Assembly (NCBI GenBank): GCA_009015555.1
Contig: GCA_009015555.1_3613.1
From: a phage
Reading direction: 5' to 3' (one strand)
Length of the DNA stretch: 64,000 nucleotides
How positions within the stretch are numbered: the first letter of the stretch is position 1; the number at the start of each line of letters is the position of its first letter. Under the pieces are notes generated by a model that worked only from the letters and a program-made list of their open reading frames with translations, ran no database searches and was not told the origin of the DNA. Positions 20,212 through 29,409 of the stretch are shown one piece after another. Both the position numbers and the translations under genes were made by a program.

Positions 20212-22002
20212 ATGTTACATAACGACCTGCCTATCCTGTTTGCTGACTGGTACAAACCGAGCCATATTTCCATGTACAGCAAACAGTCTGAGATCGTACA
20301 AGACAACATGACCCCACGCTCAAGCAAACACTTTCAGCACTTTTCTGACAGTGACCAGCGCGTCATGTCTGCTGGCCTGCAAGGCTTTATTAAGTGGTTC
20401 CTGATTGAACACTTCAACCGTGAGTTCTTCGGTCGTCCGAAGGAAGAAGTTATCGGGGAGTTCAAAGAGATCTGTGACCTGGCGATCGGCCCAGACATGG
20501 TTGAAACGTGGGGCTTCGAAAAGCTGCATGACCTGGGCTATCTGCCTGTTGAAATCCGCGCCCTGCCGGAAGGTACTCTTTCTCCGGTACAAGTGCCTCT
20601 GTTCACAATTCAGAACACGCACCCGGACTTCTACTGGCTTCCTAACTACCTGGAGTCAGTGATCTCCTCTGAAAACTGGAAAACCGTAACTACGGCAACC
20701 ATTTTCTGGCAGTATCGTAAGCTGGCTGAACTGTGGGCGCAGAAAACCTGCGACAACAACCTGCACGTCCCGTTCCAGATTCATTGCTTCGCTTATCGCG
20801 GCCAGGCTGGCACTCACGATGCGGCCCAGTCTGAACTGGGACAACTGATGAACTCTCAGGGCACCGACACCATCCCGGCGATCCTGTATGCAAACCGTTA
20901 TTACGGTATGAAAGGCAAGTTCGTATCCGGCTCCATCCCGGCATCCGAGCACAGCGTTGCAACAACGAACATCGGGTTCATCATCGGACGCCTCCGTTCT
21001 GAGCATCCGGAAATGTCGCTGGATGACCTGCGTTTCCACGCAGAAGTCGAGTTCCTGCGCCGATACATCACTGAAATCTTCCCGAAAGGTTTCGTGTCTT
21101 ATGTCGGCGACAGTTATGACTGGTTCCGCCTGATCACTCAGGGTGTTCGTATCCTGAAAGACGAAATCATGGCCCGTGATGGTCGTGTGGTATTCCGCCC
21201 GGATTCCGGCGTACCGGAAGACATCATCTGCGGCACACTGGACTGGCGTAAGATTGAAGACCTCGACACGGCAGGTACTCTGGAACGCGCTGCCAATTGG
21301 GCACTGGAAAGTGCCGAAGATGAAGTTCGTGAGAACACCCCGCACGGTGAATGCGGTGATGAATCCGTTGAACGTTACTTCCTGTTCGATGGCGATCTGT
21401 ACCTGATGAAGGGTGAGATTGACTGGAACCGTCACGACAAAACGTATTACTACATCGACGGTCGCCGTGTTCTGTCTTACGAAAAGGCAGAACTCACTGA
21501 TGAGCAGAAAGGTTCTGTTGAACTGCTGTACGATGTGTTCGGTGGCGACCTGAACTCCAAAGGCTATCGTACTCTGGACACCCACGTCGGCCTGATTTAC
21601 GGTGACTCCATCACCGTTGCTCGCGCCAAAGAGATCTTCGAGCGCCTGGAAGCAAAAGGCTTTGCATCGAACAACGTTGTGTTCGGTGTCGGTTCCTTCA
21701 CCACCCAGTTCAACACTCGTGATTCTCTGGGTCAGGCAGTCAAGGCGACAGGCGCGGTTATTGACGGTCAGCAGATCATGGTCGTCAAAGAGCCTAAGAC
21801 CGACCTCGGCAAGAAGTCTGCTCAGGGCTTCCTGAAGGTTGTTCGTGGTGAAGACGGTGAACTGAAGCTGGTTGATAACCTCCAACTGGAGCAAGTCAAC
21901 GATACCGACAATGAACTGCGTGTGGTTTTCCGTGACGGCGTTCTGCTGGTTGACGAAACGCTGACTGAAATCCGTGAGCGTGTCACAGCAAACCTGAAAT
22001 AA
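20212..22002 (+). CDS. Nicotinamide phosphoribosyltransferase (NAMPT/NadV) family protein; candidate nicotinamide ADPR transferase (Namat)
   Basis: 596-aa NAMPT-family translation immediately downstream of the Prs-like gene; RBS GAGGAG; no NMN adenylyltransferase seen in window. Confidence 0.8.
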   Translation: MLHNDLPILFADWYKPSHISMYSKQSEIVQDNMTPRSSKHFQHFSDSDQRVMSAGLQGFIKWFLIEHFNREFFGRPKEEVIGEFKEICDLAIGPDMVETWGFEKLHDLGYLPVEIRALPEGTLSPVQVPLFTIQNTHPDFYWLPNYLESVISSENWKTVTTATIFWQYRKLAELWAQKTCDNNLHVPFQIHCFAYRGQAGTHDAAQSELGQLMNSQGTDTIPAILYANRYYGMKGKFVSGSIPASEHSVATTNIGFIIGRLRSEHPEMSLDDLRFHAEVEFLRRYITEIFPKGFVSYVGDSYDWFRLITQGVRILKDEIMARDGRVVFRPDSGVPEDIICGTLDWRKIEDLDTAGTLERAANWALESAEDEVRENTPHGECGDESVERYFLFDGDLYLMKGEIDWNRHDKTYYYIDGRRVLSYEKAELTDEQKGSVELLYDVFGGDLNSKGYRTLDTHVGLIYGDSITVARAKEIFERLEAKGFASNNVVFGVGSFTTQFNTRDSLGQAVKATGAVIDGQQIMVVKEPKTDLGKKSAQGFLKVVRGEDGELKLVDNLQLEQVNDTDNELRVVFRDGVLLVDETLTEIRERVTANLK

Positions 22003-22006
22003 TTTC

Positions 22007-22029
22007 AGCCGCCCTTCGGGGCGGTTTTT
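22007..22029 (+). terminator. Rho-independent terminator
   Basis: agccgcccttcggggcggttttt immediately after NAMPT-like stop. Confidence 0.7.
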
Positions 22030-22047
22030 AACTATCCGGAGGATGAA

Positions 22048-22206
22048 ATGAAACTGAATGAATCTCAGTATCTGGCGGCAAGAAAGGCGTTTGTGGAAAA
22101 TTCCGTATTCGATAATATCCGTATGTGGGTGGAAGATGGGCAAATGTCAGAGGATGAGCTTCGGGTGTTGATTGGAGAGATCTTCGCTCCCGTGGAGGTA
22201 GAATGA
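22048..22206 (+). CDS. small hypothetical protein (52 aa)
   Basis: ATG with GGAGGATGAA RBS; not in ORF track (<60 aa). Confidence 0.3.
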   Translation: MKLNESQYLAARKAFVENSVFDNIRMWVEDGQMSEDELRVLIGEIFAPVEVE

Positions 22207-22394
22207 GAAACCCAGTTGCACGAAACGACTTTAACCGGGCAGCAACGCACCCAGATCGCTCTAAGCGGCCTCAAAAGACTGTAGACGAGGGTTTGCTCGA
22301 CTACTTTGCAGAAAACGCTGAGAACGTCGCATACAGCGAATATGAACGTGCCTCTACAAACGCTCCGGGCGCTCCCCTTCCACCCGGGCGTTGA
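22203..22394 (+). CDS. hypothetical protein (63 aa)
   Basis: ORF with ATGA overlap to upstream small ORF. Confidence 0.3.
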   Translation: MRNPVARNDFNRAATHPDRSKRPQKTVDEGLLDYFAENAENVAYSEYERASTNAPGAPLPPGR

Positions 22395-22453
22395 CTATCA
22401 TTAAGTCCTCCAGTAAAATGACCATATCACTTGATTAACTTACTGTTGGACTT

Positions 22454-22705
22454 ATGAATCCCTATAAACTCACTCTCAGCTTTATCACCCCTGATTACAC
22501 TTCTGAAGAACATTGTGAGCATTACCCTACCCTTCAAGACGCTCTCGATGACGCCGACGATTTAGCTTTCAGTACCGTCGGATTCCCTCTTGAGGATTGG
22601 CAAAGTGTTGACTTTGGTGAAGGTAATTACTTATACTCGTTTTACCCGAACGAGGTTGATAAAACCTCTCGCTATAAACTGGCAATCCTGAAGGAGGAAG
22701 TTTGA
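22454..22705 (+). CDS. small highly acidic protein (83 aa)
   Basis: Asp/Glu-rich composition (e.g. DALDDADDLAF, EDWQSVDFGEG). Confidence 0.45.
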   Translation: MNPYKLTLSFITPDYTSEEHCEHYPTLQDALDDADDLAFSTVGFPLEDWQSVDFGEGNYLYSFYPNEVDKTSRYKLAILKEEV

Positions 22706-22938
22706 GAAAGTTCCATTACTTAGTCACCATCGACCTGGATGATGACCACCTTGAGCAGATGGTTAAGGACCAGCCTGACCTTATCGACTGCGAGACGTTC
22801 GAAGGAGTAGCCCCGGAAAACTTCGTAAGTGTTTTCGCAGAGAAGATGACCGAAGGTATTGACGAGGCTTTACAAGAAGGTCTCGGTGACGCTGGCAACA
22901 GCAAAGTTAAAACTATTTTCGCAGGAGAATGCAAATGA
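22702..22938 (+). CDS. small highly acidic protein (78 aa)
   Basis: Asp/Glu-rich (TIDLDDDHLEQMVKDQPDLIDCETFEG); ATGA-coupled to upstream acidic ORF. Confidence 0.45.
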   Translation: MRKFHYLVTIDLDDDHLEQMVKDQPDLIDCETFEGVAPENFVSVFAEKMTEGIDEALQEGLGDAGNSKVKTIFAGECK

Positions 22939-23161
22939 ACAGCACCGAATTAGTGATCGGCTACGGAGAAGGCATTCGTAGCGAAGAGGACTGGGGAGTT
23001 TTCGATGAGCGCCCGGACCTTTAATCACCTGCCGGGGGCGGATGACCCCCGGAACCACGAATATAAGGGATACATCTGCCTTTGTTTTGTGTGCGGAAAC
23101 AAATATCTTGGTCCAAAACGCTCGGTTATGTGCAATCTTTGTGCAAACGGTAAAAAGCCTG

Positions 23162-23190
23162 TTGACAAAGAGTAGAGCTACAGGTAATCT
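23162..23190 (+). promoter_or_regulatory. Candidate sigma70-type promoter upstream of tRNA array
   Basis: TTGACA at 23162-23167, 17-nt spacer, TAATCT at 23185-23190. Confidence 0.4.
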
Positions 23191-23477
23191 GAATATGTCC
23201 CGAACGAGATGACAATCAAGTAGGTGGATGGATAAGTCAACCCGGTCTGTTAAACGACCAAAGTGCCATTGCGGTTCGGGTTGAGTTCAGCCGGATAAAC
23301 AGCGGCTCCATCGACGGCCTCTGGAATAGCGACGGTTGCTTCAGGTCTCACGACCACCCGTTACGTGAAACACGCTTTTGCTGGACGAGAAGGGGAAGTC
23401 AACCCCACGGGCATACGTCCTCTGCCCATTTCTCCCTCCCCCGGAGCGTAACAACTACCGGACTTGCTGGGAGACTT

Positions 23478-23553
23478 GCTGGATTAGCTCAGTAGGTAGA
23501 GCGCCTCACTTGTAATGAGGATGTCGCGGGTTCGATTCCTGCATCCAGCACCA
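23478..23553 (+). tRNA. tRNA-Thr (anticodon TGT)
   Basis: Cloverleaf read by eye: acceptor gctggat/atccagc, anticodon loop cttgtaa, T-loop ttcgatt, CCA encoded. Confidence 0.8.
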
Positions 23554-23559
23554 GATCAT

Positions 23560-23636
23560 GCAACGTTGCCGGAGTCTGGTAACGGCTCTCGCTGCAAACG
23601 AGATGAGCACTGGTTCGAATCCAGTACGTTGCTCCA
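23560..23636 (+). tRNA. tRNA-Cys (anticodon GCA)
   Basis: Acceptor gcaacgt/acgttgc, anticodon stem tctcg/cgaga, loop ctgcaaa, T-loop ttcgaat, CCA. Confidence 0.75.
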
Positions 23637-23637
23637 A

Positions 23638-23714
23638 GCGCCTTTGGTCCAATTGGTAGAGGCACTACATTCAAAATGTAGGGGTTCCCAGTTCGAATCT
23701 GGGAAGGCGCACCA
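23638..23714 (+). tRNA. tRNA with CAA anticodon (Leu by anticodon) but short variable arm
   Basis: Acceptor gcgcctt/aaggcgc, anticodon stem ctaca/tgtag, loop ttcaaaa, T-arm cccag-ttcgaat-ctggg, CCA; only 5-nt variable region. Confidence 0.6.
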
Positions 23715-23730
23715 AAATTTATGTAACCTA

Positions 23731-23759
23731 TTGACATAGTGTAATTATACTGCTAATAT
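23731..23759 (+). promoter_or_regulatory. Sigma70-type promoter for the small gene embedded in the tRNA array
   Basis: TTGACA 23731-23736, 17-nt spacer, TAATAT 23754-23759, then RBS and ATG at 23786. Confidence 0.6.
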
Positions 23760-23785
23760 GGATACACTAATTCAATGGGGGCATT

Positions 23786-24160
23786 ATGAGCAAGGCTGCG
23801 ATTGTAACTCGTAAGCGTGGTCGCCCAAGCAAAGAAGAGAGCACAGCAATCGCCCTTGAAAAGGCAATGCTTGATCTCCGAGGCGAATTGGCCCGTCTGA
23901 CGCCGAAGGCCATTCATACTCTCGAAAACCTGCTCACAACAGGCACAGAGAAAGTGAAGGAAACCACGGCGAAGTATATCCTTGAGCAGGCGAAAGAGGT
24001 TAACAACCTCTATACTGAAGAGGATAACGAAGACGACGCAGCAGGCGGCACAACATCTGCCTCTTCTGAAACTCACGCTGGTTCTTCTGACGAGATGAAA
24101 AATGCCATCCCGTTGACAACCCAGATTCGTGAGTATAAAGCAGTAGGCGAAGATGATTAA
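23786..24160 (+). CDS. small protein with AT-hook-like RKRGRPSK motif (124 aa)
   Basis: Own promoter, RBS and downstream hairpin; basic N-terminus, acidic Ser/Thr-rich C-terminus. Confidence 0.5.
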   Translation: MSKAAIVTRKRGRPSKEESTAIALEKAMLDLRGELARLTPKAIHTLENLLTTGTEKVKETTAKYILEQAKEVNNLYTEEDNEDDAAGGTTSASSETHAGSSDEMKNAIPLTTQIREYKAVGEDD

Positions 24161-24162
24161 CT

Positions 24163-24190
24163 GGAAGGCTCCCGAAGGAGCCTTTATTAG
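24163..24190 (+). terminator. Terminator-like hairpin
   Basis: aaggctcccgaaggagcctt hairpin followed by tattag (weak T tract). Confidence 0.4.
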
Positions 24191-24325
24191 AAGTTCTCTT
24201 TTGACGGGCACTTGTTAACGACCCGCAGAATGACGACGGTGTACAACGGCGTTTGATGGCGAGGAAGGTCTATAGGGATCAGCGCAGATCCTTGGATGTC
24301 AGGTGAGCCGTACAAAAGAGAATTT

Positions 24326-24413
24326 GGGGAGTTATTTCCGTAGAGGTAGCGGTGCAGACTGTAAATCTGTTGTCATTGCGACTCGGGTGGTTCGACTCCA
24401 TCACTCCCCACCA
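24326..24413 (+). tRNA. tRNA-Tyr (anticodon GTA), long variable arm
   Basis: Acceptor ggggagt/actcccc, anticodon loop ctgtaaa, T-loop ttcgact, CCA. Confidence 0.75.
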
Positions 24414-24419
24414 AATTAT

Positions 24420-24514
24420 AGTAGGATGGCTGAGTGGCTTAAAGCAGCATCTTGGAAAGGTGTCGGATCAGGTAACCCCTGGTCCCGGGAGTTCAAATCT
24501 CCCTCCTACTGCCA
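24420..24514 (+). tRNA. tRNA-Ser (anticodon GGA), long variable arm
   Basis: Acceptor agtagga/tcctact, anticodon loop cttggaa, T-loop ttcaaat, CCA. Confidence 0.7.
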
Positions 24515-24518
24515 GACC

Positions 24519-24595
24519 GGATCGTTAGCTCAATTGGTTAGAGCAAGGGACTTTTAATCCCGAGGTTCGGGGTTCGAGTCCCTGACGGTCCACCA
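24519..24595 (+). tRNA. tRNA-Lys (anticodon TTT)
   Basis: Acceptor ggatcgt/acggtcc, anticodon loop cttttaa, T-loop ttcgagt, CCA. Confidence 0.75.
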
Positions 24596-24760
24596 GAAAG
24601 GAAGAGGGTCCAAGCTGGTAATGCGAGAGGCGAGTCCTCAGACCAAAGCCCAGATGGAGGCCACCCTAAAGTCGTCCAACCGAAGGTCCCTGATTGAGTA
24701 ATACTTCCCCGCTTGTCGGGTACAGTTCTCAGTCACACCGGAAGGGGCGCACCCTATAAT

Positions 24761-24836
24761 TGACGGTGAGCATATAAGGACATGCGGGGGCCTGTTAAGT
24801 CCAGGATAGCTGGTTCGAATCCAGTACCGTCAGCCA
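24761..24836 (+). tRNA. tRNA-Asn (anticodon GTT)
   Basis: Acceptor tgacggt/accgtca, D-stem gcat/atgc, anticodon loop ctgttaa, T-loop ttcgaat, CCA. Confidence 0.7.
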
Positions 24837-24945
24837 ATTTGGTTCCGACAAGGTGACGGCGCACCCCGGAGCGACGCTGAAAGATGCAGGCCGACGAACA
24901 CATACGTGTACTTAATCAATAGTCATTGCGATGGCTATTCGTTAA

Positions 24946-25023
24946 GTCCTGGTAGACAAACTGGATAAAGTCACCACCCTTTCAAGGTGGGGTTTGAGGG
25001 TTCGATCCCCTCTCAGGACGCCA
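24946..25023 (+). tRNA. tRNA-Glu (anticodon TTC)
   Basis: Acceptor gtcctgg/tcaggac, anticodon stem ccacc/ggtgg, loop ctttcaa, T-loop ttcgatc, CCA. Confidence 0.75.
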
Positions 25024-25117
25024 ATCTTTTAGGTCGGTAGATTAATGAGCAAAGGCCGCTCGCTGGATTCCAACCCCAGTTCAAGGCGTTCGATTCGTCA
25101 CCTTCCTGCCAAATTCA

Positions 25118-25193
25118 GGTCCTATGGTATTAGCGGTAAACATACTCGCCTGTCACGCGAGAGTCACGGGTTCGAATCCCGTTAGGACCGCCA
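25118..25193 (+). tRNA. tRNA-Asp (anticodon GTC)
   Basis: Acceptor ggtccta/taggacc, anticodon stem ctcgc/gcgag, loop ctgtcac, T-loop ttcgaat, CCA. Confidence 0.75.
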
Positions 25194-25200
25194 CTTCAAA

Positions 25201-25275
25201 TGGGGATTAGCTCAGGGGTAGAGCGCACAACTGATAATTGTGAGGTCGGTGGTTCGAAACCACCATCCCCAACCA
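25201..25275 (+). tRNA. tRNA-Ile (anticodon GAT)
   Basis: Acceptor tggggat/atcccca, D-arm gctc-aggggta-gagc, anticodon loop ctgataa, T-loop ttcgaaa, CCA. Confidence 0.75.
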
Positions 25276-25345
25276 AACAGCCCCTCCCGGGATTGGACCG
25301 GGTTAACGGCAATCGCACACTGAGGCGTCTTCCGGGGGAACAATA

Positions 25346-25422
<77 letters not shown>

Positions 25423-25428
25423 AATTAT

Positions 25429-25503
25429 TGCGAGGTAGTTCAGCGGTAGAACAGGGGTTTCATACGCCTCATGTCGGCAGTTCGATTCTGCCCTTCGCAA
25501 CCA
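25429..25503 (+). tRNA. tRNA-Met (anticodon CAT; initiator, elongator or Ile-lysidine type not distinguished)
   Basis: Acceptor tgcgagg/cttcgca, anticodon loop ttcatac, T-loop ttcgatt, CCA. Confidence 0.7.
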
Positions 25504-25509
25504 AATCAT

Positions 25510-25587
25510 GCTCCAGTAGCCCAATTGGTAGAGGCACTTGATTTAGGATCATGTCAGCGATGAGTTCGAATCTCTCCTGGAGTACCA
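25510..25587 (+). tRNA. tRNA with TAG anticodon (Leu by anticodon), short variable arm, weak T-stem
   Basis: Acceptor gctccag/ctggagt, anticodon stem cttga/tcatg, loop tttagga, T-loop ttcgaat with only ~3 bp T-stem, CCA. Confidence 0.5.
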
Positions 25588-25593
25588 CATAAA

Positions 25594-25667
25594 GCGGGCA
25601 TGGTATAGTGGTTGTGCCTTAGCCTTCCAAGCTAATGAGTCCGGTTCGATCCCGGATGTCCGCTCCA
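25594..25667 (+). tRNA. tRNA-Gly (anticodon TCC)
   Basis: Acceptor gcgggca/tgtccgc, anticodon stem ttagc/gctaa, loop cttccaa, T-loop ttcgatc, CCA. Confidence 0.75.
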
Positions 25668-25740
25668 ATTCACGGTGAGTCACTGCCGTTAAGTGTGAAG
25701 TTAAAAATGCCCGTGGTGATCGGGTTATCTCACCCAGTGT

Positions 25741-25816
25741 AGGGGATTAGTTTAATTGGTAAAACATCGGGTTTTGATCCCGACATCGCGAGGTTCGAAT
25801 CCTCCATCCCCCGCCA
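25741..25816 (+). tRNA. tRNA-Gln (anticodon TTG)
   Basis: Acceptor aggggat/atccccc (A1-C72 mismatch), anticodon stem tcggg/cccga, loop ttttgat, T-loop ttcgaat, CCA. Confidence 0.7.
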
Positions 25817-25898
25817 CATTAATGCTCATTAGCTCTTGTCAGTGGAACTCGAACCCTTAGAGCAGGCGACACAGACGTGTGTTTTAGTGAGCATCAAT

Positions 25899-25974
25899 GT
25901 GGCCTTAATTCAGCAGGTAGAATCCCCGGTTGTGAACCGGGCAGTCGTGGGTTCAAGTCCCACAGGTCACCCCA
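25899..25974 (+). tRNA. tRNA-His (anticodon GTG)
   Basis: Acceptor gtggcct/aggtcac, anticodon stem cccgg/ccggg, loop ttgtgaa, T-loop ttcaagt, CCA. Confidence 0.75.
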
Positions 25975-25978
25975 ATCT

Positions 25979-26071
25979 GGAAGATAGGGCGTAGTGGTAC
26001 GCACCCGGATTTGAACCCCGGCCCGCTGTGGCGACCCCACGGTGATAGTTCGACTCTATTATCTTCCGCCA
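25979..26071 (+). tRNA. tRNA-Ser (anticodon TGA), long variable arm
   Basis: Acceptor ggaagat/atcttcc, anticodon loop tttgaac, long variable arm, T-loop ttcgact, CCA. Confidence 0.65.
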
Positions 26072-26092
26072 CCCCTGATCATAAGGCAAACT

Positions 26093-26785
26093 ATGTTAGA
26101 AATGTTAACAGTGGGTAAATACACCCCTAGTCCTATAATTTCTAGCCCTATGGATGCTTATTTTGAGGGCGAGAGGAATAATAAATACGGCACTGTTGAG
26201 TGGGTTGTTCCTCAAGGCGTCACCTCAATCTGCTGTGTAGTGATAGGCGCAGGATCTTCTGGCAGAAGCGGCGGTCTTTCTTGGAGAAACAACATTCCAG
26301 TTACACCTGGTGAAAAACTTAAAATGCAGGTTAACTCCACAGCCAGCGCCCTCTTGAGAGAGACAACTATCCTTTGTGCTGCCCAGTGTGGCGGCAACGG
26401 AGGAAAAACATATAACTCTGTGAACGACGGTGGAGGCAATGCTGGACAATCACCACATGGTAGAGGTGGTGCTGGCGGCTACACCGGGAATGGTGGTGAT
26501 GGGCATACGTTCACAGGTGGTCCAGGACCAGGGTCCCCAGGTTCAGGTGGCGGCGGCGGCGGAGGCGCAGTTGTGTATCTGAACGGATCATTGACACCAA
26601 CTGTCTGCGGCGGAGTCGGCATGTATGGACAGGGGTCGAATGGTGGCGCTGATAACAGCGCCGGATATCCAGGCTCCGGCGGTTCTGGAACAAGATACGG
26701 AAGAGCAGTCGATGGTTATGGTGTTGTCAGGGTTGTGTGGGGAAATTATTCATTCCCAACAAATGCCCCGAGACCGAAATCCTGA
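26093..26785 (+). CDS. glycine-rich hypothetical protein (~230 aa) embedded in tRNA array
   Basis: Start taken at MLEMLTVGKY (track ORF start at 26042 lies inside tRNA-Ser); Gly-rich GGxGG runs and C-terminal GYGVVRVVWG. Confidence 0.5.
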   Translation: MLEMLTVGKYTPSPIISSPMDAYFEGERNNKYGTVEWVVPQGVTSICCVVIGAGSSGRSGGLSWRNNIPVTPGEKLKMQVNSTASALLRETTILCAAQCGGNGGKTYNSVNDGGGNAGQSPHGRGGAGGYTGNGGDGHTFTGGPGPGSPGSGGGGGGGAVVYLNGSLTPTVCGGVGMYGQGSNGGADNSAGYPGSGGSGTRYGRAVDGYGVVRVVWGNYSFPTNAPRPKS

Positions 26786-26856
26786 TAGGGATGGTCCCTA
26801 CGAGGATCGTCTTTTGCTCAGTGGTACTCAGCATTTACTTAGTATTCAAACAATAT

Positions 26857-26943
26857 AGAAGAGTGGCGAAATAGGTAGCCGCACCGGACTGCTAATCCGG
26901 GGTCCTTCGGGGCCTGAGAGTTCAAGTCTCTCCTCTTCTGCCA
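26857..26943 (+). tRNA. tRNA-Ser (anticodon GCT), long variable arm
   Basis: Acceptor agaagag/ctcttct, anticodon stem ccgga/tccgg, loop ctgctaa, T-loop ttcaagt, CCA. Confidence 0.75.
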
Positions 26944-26948
26944 AGCAT

Positions 26949-27024
26949 GGAACTGTAGCTCAGTTGGTAGAGCGGTTGCCTGAAGAGCAGCGCGTCAGCG
27001 GTTCAAATCCGTTCAGTTCCACCA
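26949..27024 (+). tRNA. tRNA-Phe (anticodon GAA)
   Basis: Acceptor ggaactg/cagttcc, D-arm gctc-agttggtaga-gagc, anticodon loop ctgaaga, T-loop ttcaaat, CCA. Confidence 0.8.
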
Positions 27025-27066
27025 CATTCTAACAAGAATAAAATATCTCCTCTCCTTCGCCTCAGT

Positions 27067-27091
27067 GCCCTCCTTCGTGGAGGGCTTTTTT
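27067..27091 (+). terminator. Rho-independent terminator closing the tRNA array
   Basis: gccctcc-ttcgt-ggagggc hairpin followed by tttttt. Confidence 0.65.
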
Positions 27092-27130
27092 ATTTCTGGT
27101 TTCGGTGATAAAATACCCAAAGGAGGTATT

Positions 27131-27502
27131 ATGACAACTTTCATATTGAAGTACAAGAAGTACCTGATCGGCATCGGGGTCGCGGCCCTTCTGCTGTTCT
27201 CCTTTAATTGGTATGTCGGCACCAAGGAGGATGCGGCTTATGACCGTGGCTTTCAGTATGCAAACACCCAGTGGGAGAAAAAGGGAAAAGAGTACGTTGA
27301 TCTTATCGACAAAGGTAAGGCTGACAACACGGCTCTTAATGAAGAACTGGCTCGGGTATCTGAGGAAAAGCGTAAGCTGGAAGAAGCCCGCCGTCATAAT
27401 GTAAACGACAAACAGGTCGAATACAACAAAACTGAAGCCGCCCGGAAGAAAGGGTTGGACGATGACTTTGTGGATCTGTACAACGAATCCTTGGGGGACT
27501 GA
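27131..27502 (+). CDS. i-spanin-like (Rz-like) inner-membrane lysis protein
   Basis: AAAGGAGG RBS; N-terminal TM helix LIGIGVAALLLFSF then charged coiled-coil region. Confidence 0.58.
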   Translation: MTTFILKYKKYLIGIGVAALLLFSFNWYVGTKEDAAYDRGFQYANTQWEKKGKEYVDLIDKGKADNTALNEELARVSEEKRKLEEARRHNVNDKQVEYNKTEAARKKGLDDDFVDLYNESLGD

Positions 27503-27816
27503 TGAGAAAATTTATTCTCGGAATGTTCATGGTTCTGGCACTGTCAGCGTGCAGCAACAAAGACAGAATCCCAGAGGTTGCCTTCAAGGGCACCACGGTA
27601 GAAGACCTTGTAGATAAGCCGGACCGAGAGCTAATGCGTAAGGCTCCACCAAAGCAGTACCTCAAGAAAGGTACAGACAACGGTGAAGGCGCGGTTGTTA
27701 TAAGTAACAACAACTTGCGGGCAGCGACAGTCGAGCGCAGGCTCGAAGACCTCCAGCAATACGTCTGCAACCTCTTCCAAGACCCAGTTGGGGAAGTCTG
27801 CGTAAAGGGTAAGTGA
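27502..27816 (+). CDS. o-spanin-like (Rz1-like) outer-membrane lipoprotein
   Basis: Lipobox LALSAC after signal peptide; ATGA overlap with upstream i-spanin-like gene. Confidence 0.62.
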   Translation: MRKFILGMFMVLALSACSNKDRIPEVAFKGTTVEDLVDKPDRELMRKAPPKQYLKKGTDNGEGAVVISNNNLRAATVERRLEDLQQYVCNLFQDPVGEVCVKGK

Positions 27817-27824
27817 TTGTGCCA

Positions 27825-27858
27825 AAAGGCTCTCCATACGTGGAGGGCCTTTTCTTTT
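27825..27858 (+). terminator. Terminator-like hairpin with T-run
   Basis: ggctctcca-tacg-tggagggcc followed by ttttctttt; lies inside the TTG-initiated track ORF, supporting the later terminase start. Confidence 0.5.
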
Positions 27859-27921
27859 AGGTCACTTTGTGATAATATACCTACTATCGAAGCATGTCAA
27901 TTTATTTATTCAGGAGAGTTA

Positions 27922-29409
27922 ATGTCCGCTACATTCGCACCCGCGAGTCGTAAGCAACAGATGGTTCTCGAATCTAAAGCACAGATCCTCATCATGGGTG
28001 GCGCAGCAGGCTCCGGCAAATCTTACCTGCTCCAGTTGATGCCCCTGTTGATCATTGATGATCCTCGTACAGCTTGCATCATGTTCCGCCGTACAGTGCC
28101 TCAGATTCGTGGTCAGGGCGGTCTGTTCGACAAAGCGAAAGATATTTACAACCAGCTTCCTCCGGTCGTCAAGCCTAAGTTCAAAGAGAACGAGATGATT
28201 GCGACCTTCCCGAACGGGGCGACGGTGAAGTGGCAGTCCATGCAGCACATCAACGATAAGTATAACATCCAGGGTCTGGAATTTACTTTCATTGGTGTGG
28301 ATGAAGGGACCCAGTTTGACTGGGAACAGCTTGAGTACATGATGTCGCGTTTGCGTTCAAACTCAAAGTACCCTTCCCGTATGGTCGTATCTTGTAACCC
28401 CGACCCGGATCATAAGCTCCGGGAAATGATTGACTGGTATCTGGATGAGAATGGTCTGCCGATCCCTGAACGTGACGGAGTTATCCGTTGGTTTGTTCGT
28501 GTGGATGACAACTACATCTGGGGTTCCACCAAGGAAGAACTGAAGCAACGCTTCGGTAAGAAATGTAAGCCTGTTTCATTCAGCTTCATCTCTTCCACCA
28601 TTTACGACAACCCTCCGATGCTGATCAACAACCCGGAGTACCTTGCCCAGTTGGAAGGTCTGAACGATGTTGACCGCGCCCGCCTGCTTCACGGCAACTG
28701 GGACGCTCGCCCGGAAGGTGCAAACTATTTCAAACGTGAGTTCCTGAAAGAGGTGGATTGCCTCCCGATGAACGTCACGAAAGTCCGTGCTTACGATAAG
28801 GCAGGTACGGAGCGATCCACAGCAAACAAAACCCCTGACTTTACGGCGGGGATTGGTGTGGCCCGCGATGACGACGGATTTTATTACCTGTATGGAAACT
28901 ACCATGACGATTTCATCGACAATGGTGAGTGGTCCACTGGCACCGCCGGGCGCTTCTGTAAGAAAGCTGGCGAACGTGACGTGATTATCACGAAGCAGGC
29001 AATGCTGGACGGTGACGACACAATCGTCATTTTCTCCGTTGACCCCGGTCAGGCAGGTATCTCCGAGTTCACCACGTCATCCCGTGATCTTATCTCGAAA
29101 GGGTATATGGTAGAGAAAGACCCGACACCCGGTAACAAATCGAAGCTAACCCGCTTCTCCCCGTTTGCCCAGTTGGCACAGAACGGATTTGTCCGGATCG
29201 TTAAGAAGTCATTCCCTCTGGACACGTACAACGCATTGATGAAAGAACTTGAGTCTTTCAACGGTGAACGTTCTACCGGGTCCCGTAAGGATGACTGGGC
29301 GGATGCCGTGGCATCAGGAATTAACTTCCTGGAGAAGACCGAGGTCGTCCGCGCCGTCGCTATTCCTCGACCAAATGCCCCTACTCTGTACGCCTCACGT
29401 CGTTATTAA
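27922..29409 (+). CDS. Terminase large subunit
   Basis: Walker A GGAAGSGKS, Walker B-like FIGVDEG, nuclease-domain SCNPDPDH; RBS AGGAGA before ATG at 27922. Confidence 0.85.
   Translation: MSATFAPASRKQQMVLESKAQILIMGGAAGSGKSYLLQLMPLLIIDDPRTACIMFRRTVPQIRGQGGLFDKAKDIYNQLPPVVKPKFKENEMIATFPNGATVKWQSMQHINDKYNIQGLEFTFIGVDEGTQFDWEQLEYMMSRLRSNSKYPSRMVVSCNPDPDHKLREMIDWYLDENGLPIPERDGVIRWFVRVDDNYIWGSTKEELKQRFGKKCKPVSFSFISSTIYDNPPMLINNPEYLAQLEGLNDVDRARLLHGNWDARPEGANYFKREFLKEVDCLPMNVTKVRAYDKAGTERSTANKTPDFTAGIGVARDDDGFYYLYGNYHDDFIDNGEWSTGTAGRFCKKAGERDVIITKQAMLDGDDTIVIFSVDPGQAGISEFTTSSRDLISKGYMVEKDPTPGNKSKLTRFSPFAQLAQNGFVRIVKKSFPLDTYNALMKELESFNGERSTGSRKDDWADAVASGINFLEKTEVVRAVAIPRPNAPTLYASRRY

Follow-up and report, generated by a model that had tools for sequence, protein, structure and literature searches.

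A stretch of 78 nucleotides within a 64,000-nt segment of phage DNA (hereafter the window, i.e., the whole 64-kb stretch that was analysed) was described in a first-pass annotation as a short-armed tRNA with a leucine anticodon, weak in its T-stem and one nucleotide of register away from an ochre-reading anticodon. The question raised by this locus is whether it encodes a working leucine tRNA, a degenerate pseudo-tRNA or a specialised decoder of stop codons. Our analysis identifies 25510-25587 as a real tRNA-Leu(UAG) gene, an ordinary one that annotations of sister phages already include; it does not read stop codons, nor is it clearly dead. With a probability of roughly 0.7, it would be a functional phage-encoded elongator tRNA of a short-variable-loop (type I) leucine lineage, charged by the host's leucyl-tRNA synthetase (LeuRS) and decoding CUN codons. 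For the locus itself the result is mainly a clean-up: a normal, annotated tRNA-Leu with a conserved bulged T-stem and no suppressor.

Anatomy and fold of the gene

ARAGORN called a 78-nt tRNA-Leu with anticodon TAG at exactly this position on the plus strand. The covariance-model folding that had been proposed as a check gave an RF00005 match to 25510-25584 that scored 44.1 bits (E = 2.5e-7), above the gathering score of 29, the alignment spanning model positions 1-71 of 71, i.e., the full length of the model; this score is the second lowest among the 17 RF00005 matches in the cluster. Thus, the locus is indeed the second tRNA in the window with a leucine anticodon and a short variable region: the long arm typical of the class II shape is absent, being replaced by a 5-nt loop, and the anticodon TAG is found in the loop TTTAGGA, as had been claimed. 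The 7-bp acceptor stem, the 7-nt anticodon loop, U33, a purine at position 37, G18G19 and the T-loop UUCGAAU are all canonical, and C13·A22 and U28·U42 are the only non-canonical pairs flagged by the covariance model. The impression of unusually weak stems was therefore correct, and extends beyond the T-arm to these two positions. Coordinates of all elements are given in Table 1. A protein-coding reading of the locus was rejected, as the overlapping open reading frames (ORFs) are all too short (at most 44 aa).

Table 1. The tRNA-Leu(UAG) gene, its parts and its surroundings (window coordinates).
Feature	Position	Strand	Basis
Co-directional tRNA cluster: 18 ARAGORN tRNAs and an extra tRNA-Tyr-like gene	23478-27024	+	ARAGORN, Rfam, comparison with CR3
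Type I tRNA-Leu(CAA), perfect 5-bp T-stem, 5-nt variable loop	23638-23714	+	ARAGORN, Rfam (56.5 bits)
tRNA-Leu(UAG), 78 nt, type I (short variable loop), 3' CCA encoded	25510-25587	+	ARAGORN, RF00005, annotation in CR3, CR8, CR9, F1M1E and KaOmega
Acceptor stem GCUCCAG/CUGGAGU, 7 pairs, G1·U72 first	25510-25516/25577-25583	+	Sequence reading
D-arm GCCC-AAUUGGUAG-AGGC, 3-bp stem plus C13·A22	25519-25535	+	Alignment with E. coli leuW
Anticodon arm, stem CUUGA/UCAUG, loop UUUAGGA, U28·U42 mismatch (25538/25552)	25537-25553	+	Covariance-model alignment, register test
Anticodon UAG, between U33 and G37	25544-25546	+	ARAGORN, register test
Variable loop UCAGC, 5 nt, C48 at 25558	25554-25558	+	Covariance model, comparison with relatives
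T-arm GAUGAG/loop UUCGAAU/CUCUC, 5 pairs, one bulge (U25561 or A25560)	25559-25576	+	Covariance model
Discriminator A73	25584	+	Sequence reading
Encoded 3' end CCA	25585-25587	+	Sequence reading
Terminator-like hairpin with T-run, closing the cluster after tRNA-Phe	27067-27085	+	Consensus scan only

The minimum-free-energy (MFE) fold of the tRNA (-18.5 kcal/mol, z = 0.01 against shuffled sequences) is not a cloverleaf. Weak unmodified tRNAs frequently fail this kind of test, and for that reason the MFE result was discounted and comparative evidence used instead; the predicted cloverleaf is supported by comparison, not by thermodynamics.

A short-arm leucine lineage

A BLAST search with the 88-nt region matched 214 phage records, 13 of them Certrevirus-like with 95-99% identity. 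The remaining records are 60-90% identical and are annotated as tRNA-Leu in phages of Felixounavirus and Mooglevirus, T5-like phages of Pectobacterium and Klebsiella, schizoT4 phages of Vibrio, Mycobacterium cluster C phages, and phages of Gordonia and Streptomyces. A pattern for the lineage was composed of the D-arm GCCCAAUUGGNAGAGGC and, 24-32 nt away, the T-loop GUUCGAAUC, which defines type I spacing and leaves the anticodon free. Scans with this pattern yielded at least 120 viral loci (115 distinct sequences) in IMG/VR and at least 120 bacterial loci in a set of one genome per bacterial species. The target carries both elements of the pattern, together with a leucine anticodon and A73.

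Among the matches listed, leucine anticodons were found in 114 of the 115 distinct viral sequences, where all six of them occur (TAG 52, TAA 24, CAA 24, AAG 5, GAG 5, CAG 4), and in 119 of the 120 bacterial ones. The bacterial matches listed belong mostly to Actinomycetota (Nocardia, Corynebacterium, Actinomyces, Mycolicibacterium), Bacteroidota, Planctomycetota and Acidobacteriota; none of the matches listed comes from Enterobacteriaceae. Several further features are shared by the relatives among the matches listed: A73 is present in 113-114 of 115 viral relatives and in 100 of 103 bacterial ones, U48 in 104 of 105 viral relatives and 202 of 203 overall, G1·U72 in 69 of 115 viral relatives, and C13·A22 is fixed throughout the type I leucine lineage. 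The alanine signal G3·U70 is present in none of them. In the acceptor stem, 98% of pairs are canonical, with about five pair types at each position. Canonical pairs make up 96-98% of the stems of the viral lineage in the proper register, but 30-59% once the partner strand is slid and no more than 64% in 500 shuffles; the presence of about five pair types at each stem position in these viral matches indicates strong covariation, which extends to the bacterial loci listed. The variable loop has the form N-C-A-G-U (5 nt), from which the UCAGC of the target differs in the last base while retaining the length and the CAG core.

In the viral loci listed, the short form accounts for 192 of 230 leucine tRNAs, while the long arm is kept by 97 of 98 serine and 24 of 24 tyrosine tRNAs; as the loci were chosen for holding a short leucine tRNA, the leucine fraction is biased, but the contrast with serine and tyrosine is not. 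This is the pattern expected if only LeuRS tolerates arm loss. No type I tRNA-Leu was matched in 5,426 complete genomes of E. coli, prophages included. Origin of the target from a co-resident long-arm leucine tRNA was rejected: in about 2 Mb of retrieved loci, the type I D-stem sequence was never seen in a long-arm tRNA. On these comparisons, the short arm of the target is a trait of its lineage, and the lineage is apparently a selected one.

Two observations on the lineage are made in passing. First, type I leucine tRNAs with NAG anticodons among the viral matches listed have A37 in 34 cases and G37 in 31; the target has G37. Bacterial leucine tRNAs reading CUN codons normally have G37, methylated to m1G37. 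Second, 46 of the 120 bacterial loci listed hold at least five tRNAs within a few kilobases, and 59 hold only one or two. A literature search for phage type I tRNA-Leu found only a study of Streptomyces coelicolor (PMC6614811). Our scans show that short-arm leucine tRNAs are common in the tRNA clusters of phages from many host phyla and present on some bacterial chromosomes, and this wider pattern may be modestly useful for research on tRNA identity and phage tRNAs.

The other leucine tRNA of the window, with anticodon CAA, belongs to the same lineage. Within the 64-kb window there are exactly two copies of the 14-mer CCAATTGGTAGAGG (at 23649 and 25521, with 0.02 expected by chance), each inside a leucine tRNA, and on the strength of this common D-arm the two had been called likely paralogues. 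The D-arm is indeed common to both, and they are related members of one lineage. However, the two tRNAs are only 68% identical, and UAG tRNAs from unrelated phages match the UAG tRNA of the window with 81-84% identity. Their common D-arm is the signature of the whole lineage and therefore gives no evidence for recent duplication, and the origin of one gene as a recent copy of the other was rejected.

The T-stem can be interpreted by the same comparison. The first-pass annotation had seen a 6-nt variable region followed by only about 3 bp of T-stem, which is one of two possible readings. In the covariance-model alignment the variable loop has 5 nt and is followed by G49-C65, A50-U64, an inserted U (25561), G51-C63, A52-U62 and G53-C61, so that six nucleotides face five and the 5-bp stem is interrupted once. 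The pair 49:65 is canonical in all 104 standard-length relatives among the matches listed, which supports a G25559-C25576 pair. By nearest-neighbour energy, the bulged cloverleaf has a slight advantage over the 3-bp version (-13.4 versus -12.8 kcal/mol), although the values are close. The layout of the T-arm (GAU plus 3 nt opposite 3 nt plus UC) is invariant across six Certrevirus phages, and an unrelated viral contig, Streptomyces phage Dennebes and two genomes of Acidobacteriota all have the same GAU...UC arm; a bulged arm that is kept in sister phages and recurs elsewhere is a tolerated variant and does not disqualify the tRNA. In the Felixounavirus relatives, the T-stem is GUGAG/CUCUC with a U50·U64 mismatch, and the stem of the target looks like this one with an extra A able to pair with U64. 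Hence the apparent 3-bp stem is probably better read as a conserved 5-bp stem with one bulged base.

State of this allele and alternative readings

The window represents a Certrevirus phage about 98% identical to Cronobacter phage CR3 (98.4% in the tRNA region), in which the counterpart of the target is annotated as tRNA-Leu (CR3_gt013). Five sister phages, CR3, CR8 and CR9 of Cronobacter, vB_ExiM_F1M1E (F1M1E) of Enterobacter and KaOmega of Klebsiella, have a tRNA-Leu at the same place in a Pro-Met-Leu-Gly run. Their genes are 95-98% identical to the target and share with it the acceptor stem, the D-arm, the anticodon and the T-arm. Among the six phages, a small sample, 5 of 78 columns vary in the tRNA against 11 of 14 in the flanking spacer, and constraint on the tRNA has not been lost relative to the neighbouring non-coding DNA. 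With the T-arm invariant in all six, the earlier suggestion of a degenerate pseudo-tRNA is not supported; a partly impaired copy is possible, given that C48 is found in the window allele only.

Indeed, the variable loop is UCAGU in CR8, CR9, F1M1E and KaOmega and UCAAU (with A47) in CR3. The U28·U42 mismatch of the target is present in four of the other five Certrevirus phages, the exception being F1M1E, in which the anticodon stem is fully paired and the loop is the host-like UUUAGGU. Among the matches listed, one anticodon-stem mismatch occurs in 21% of relatives, and imperfect anticodon and T-stems occur together in about 4%, the target included. With U28·U42, the bulge and C48, the target is at the weak end of its lineage, and its combination of U28·U42 and C48 may lower its performance relative to the sister-phage copies.

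The best surviving alternative is that the gene is a true type I leucine member which is losing its function and contributes little to decoding. Several facts point in this direction: the U28·U42 mismatch, the bulged T-stem, C in place of the otherwise nearly universal U48, the low rank of the covariance score, the failure of the MFE fold to give a cloverleaf, and the distribution of the gene. The adjacent tRNA-Met and tRNA-Leu(UAG) genes (25429-25587) are present or missing together, and in the Certrevirus phages PBES02, POP15 and PcCB7V tRNA-Pro is directly followed by tRNA-Gly; the Met-Leu(UAG) unit is therefore dispensable and accessory. However, a decaying gene fits poorly with the invariant T-arm and with so few variable positions next to freely diverging spacers, the T-arm variant recurs in independent viral and bacterial lineages and is thus tolerated, and a single anticodon-stem mismatch is frequent among the relatives. 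Position 48 is C also in the type I tRNA-Leu(CAA) of S. coelicolor, which has the variable loop ACAGC, is leucylated experimentally, is unaffected by the C48A change and requires a loop length of 5 nt (PMC6614811). Altogether, we consider decay or poor function unlikely, and continue to prefer a functional tRNA-Leu.

A second alternative, even less probable, is that the RNA is tRNA-shaped but has a non-decoding role or one in counter-defence, perhaps as an armless leucine tRNA that escapes a host nuclease recognising class II features, or by acting as its decoy. Phage tRNAs are able to restore infection in the face of tRNA-cleaving defences (PMC10264068, PMC11555353, PMC13056530), and one toxin, VapC52, cuts a tRNA-Ser within its long variable arm (PMC13273310). 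Moreover, enterobacterial hosts have long-arm leucine tRNAs only, so that the phage form is structurally distinct from every tRNA-Leu of the host. On the other hand, our literature search found no enterobacterial defence system directed against tRNA-Leu or its long arm, and phage T5 manages with a long-arm tRNA-Leu(UAG). The armless lineage is common to enterobacterial phages, phages of other phyla, and the chromosomes of many Actinomycetota and Bacteroidota, and the shape consequently needs no counter-defence explanation. Bacterial Schlafen nucleases were considered as class II-specific tRNases and rejected, as their reported cleavage is in the anticodon arm of type I tRNAs, with no preference for leucine or class II tRNAs. 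Conceivably, the armless shape may have some part in counter-defence. In a broader and distinctly doubtful version, enterobacterial phages would deliberately carry the armless leucine lineage so that leucine decoding survives an activity recognising class II features, whether of the host or induced by the phage, and enterobacterial LeuRS would charge the type I tRNA despite its reported inability to charge the one from Streptomyces.

Finally, the anticodon register leaves little room for stop-codon reading. Of five candidate 7-nt loops compared in the anticodon arm, only UUUAGGA is closed by a pair (A31-U39) and has both U33 and a purine at position 37 (G37), and its stem comprises three contiguous pairs even with the mismatch counted; the UUA register has a G·A closure and no contiguous stacked pairs. 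In F1M1E, CUUGA/UCAAG forms a perfect 5-bp anticodon stem (with U28-A42), which fixes the 7-nt loop for UAG. Anticodons TTA, CTA and TCA are absent from about 218 viral and bacterial relatives among the matches listed. An ochre suppressor or recoding tRNA, produced by a one-nucleotide register shift to TTA or by charging with another synthetase, is suggested by the string UUA one base upstream of UAG, but this reading is effectively refuted by the comparison, as no stop-complementary anticodon lies in a closed 7-nt loop of the target and synthetases other than LeuRS are unlikely to act on it: those that read the anticodon would refuse UAG, and the alanine (G3·U70) and serine (long-arm) signals are absent.

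Cluster context, leucine charging and known systems

The target is placed in its Pro-Met-Leu-Gly run with 6-nt spacers. Upstream of the corresponding tRNA region, the genome of CR3 has annotated genes for ribose-phosphate pyrophosphokinase, nicotinamide phosphoribosyltransferase and DNA methylase, and downstream of it, for Rz-like spanins. Neither of the two ORFs lying within the cluster matched a Pfam family.

Several elements of the cluster deserve separate mention. First, a gene resembling tRNA-Tyr(GUA), in which the variable arm is long and the CCA is encoded (24327-24411, plus strand), is annotated as tRNA-Tyr in CR3, CR8 and CR9, and was missed by ARAGORN both in the window and in CR3; only the Rfam tRNA-Sec model matches it, with 32.9 bits, which is below the threshold of 47. 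Its D-stem of 3 bp is apparently separated from the acceptor stem by 5 nt rather than 2. Second, the spacer between tRNA-Glu and tRNA-Asp (25031-25112, plus strand) is 100% identical to that of CR3, and its end resembles a T-arm followed by GCCA (AGGCGTTCGATTCGTCACCTTCCTGCCA); it has no ARAGORN or Rfam call and a fold z-score of -1.66, and may be a tRNA relic. Just upstream, CR3 has an extra 80-nt element (positions 2606-2685 of CR3 locus L001), called tRNA-Glu(ctc) by ARAGORN, that is absent from the window. Third, a glycine-rich ORF of 230 aa without a Pfam match (26093-26785, plus strand) lies between tRNA-Ser(UGA) and tRNA-Ser(GCU), and in CR3 an unrelated ORF of 221 aa lies one slot earlier, between the His and Ser(UGA) tRNAs (L001, 3651-4316); it seems that the tRNA cluster contains variable ORF cassettes. 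Fourth, CR3 has an HNH endonuclease gene between tRNA-Asn and tRNA-Glu (L001, 2142-2498), where the window has only a 110-nt gap (24837-24945), so that endonuclease content differs between close relatives. Finally, a 'pseudo-ToxI' is annotated in the homologous tRNA region of Pectobacterium phage phiTE of the same genus; Tandem Repeats Finder detected no ToxI-like repeats at 22000-28000 of the window.

The preferred reading, a functional tRNA-Leu(UAG), implies the following sequence of events. The gene would be transcribed together with its neighbours in the co-directional cluster, and the tRNA would be excised by RNase P of the host and by 3' processing, with its CCA already encoded. The predicted fold, supported by comparison, is a cloverleaf with a one-base bulge in the T-stem. 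After charging with leucine by the host LeuRS, the tRNA would decode CUA and CUG, and possibly CUU if its U34 is modified as in E. coli. The E. coli tRNA-Leu(UAG) carries a modified U34, which makes reading of CUU possible. Together with the CAA tRNA, it would give the phage a supply of its own for two thirds or more of leucine codons. In 52 long ORFs of the window, leucine is encoded by CUG (48.5%), UUG (16.8%), CUU (16.0%), CUC (15.1%), CUA (2.1%) and UUA (1.5%). As CUA is rare in the phage, simple compensation for a rare codon does not explain the UAG tRNA and was rejected; the codon usage fits general self-supply better. Such a supply would matter when infection depletes host tRNAs or exposes them to attack.

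The E. coli LeuRS ignores both the anticodon and the long arm, armless variants of tRNA-Leu remain active, and the leucine identity set consists of A73, U8:A14, A15:U48, G18G19, A20a, U54:A58 and contacts of the D-loop with the T-loop (PMC9976931). In the target, A73, U8:A14, G18G19, A20a, U54:A58, U55 and C56 are all present, and the D-loop is identical in alignment to that of E. coli leuW (A14, A15, G18, G19, A20a). The A15:U48 trans-Levitt pair is not formed, position 48 being C (25558). The homologous Leu_TAG tRNA of phage Sf14 scores best as leucine with the isotype models of tRNAscan (PMC12482277). However, in vitro the E. coli LeuRS was unable to leucylate S. coelicolor type I tRNA-Leu(CAA) (Fan et al., 2019; PMC6614811), and charging of the target by an enterobacterial enzyme is therefore an inference. 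In view of this failure on a bacterial type I tRNA-Leu, the phage tRNAs raise a simple question, namely, whether enterobacterial LeuRS charges them.

The tRNA locus has parallels at several levels. The clusters of phages T4 and T5 are likewise compact arrays of many tRNAs broken by small ORFs and homing endonucleases, and are thought to sustain late translation or to evade tRNA-targeting defences; the tRNA-Leu(UAG) of T5, however, has 85 nt and a long arm, unlike the short-arm target. The human mitochondrial tRNA-Leu(UUR) resembles the target in being type I, in having A14 and A73 as identity elements and in being functional despite mismatched, floppy stems (PMC9976931), but it is organellar, is charged by a mitochondrial LeuRS dedicated to this task and is unrelated in sequence to the target. 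The type I tRNA-Leu(CAA) of S. coelicolor shares with the target a leucine anticodon, the short frame and a 5-nt loop (ACAGC versus UCAGC). It differs in being chromosomal and essential, in being charged by its own LeuRS with an adapted leucine-specific domain and in not using A73 (PMC6614811), whereas the viral target has to use enterobacterial LeuRS. The closest host counterpart is the class II leuW of E. coli, which has the same anticodon, A73 and D-loop AAUUGGUAGA and a similar anticodon loop (UUUAGGU versus UUUAGGA in the target). It differs in its length of 85 nt, 13-nt variable arm, G1-C72 pair and perfect T-stem, and the target aligns to it as though 8 nt of the arm were absent.
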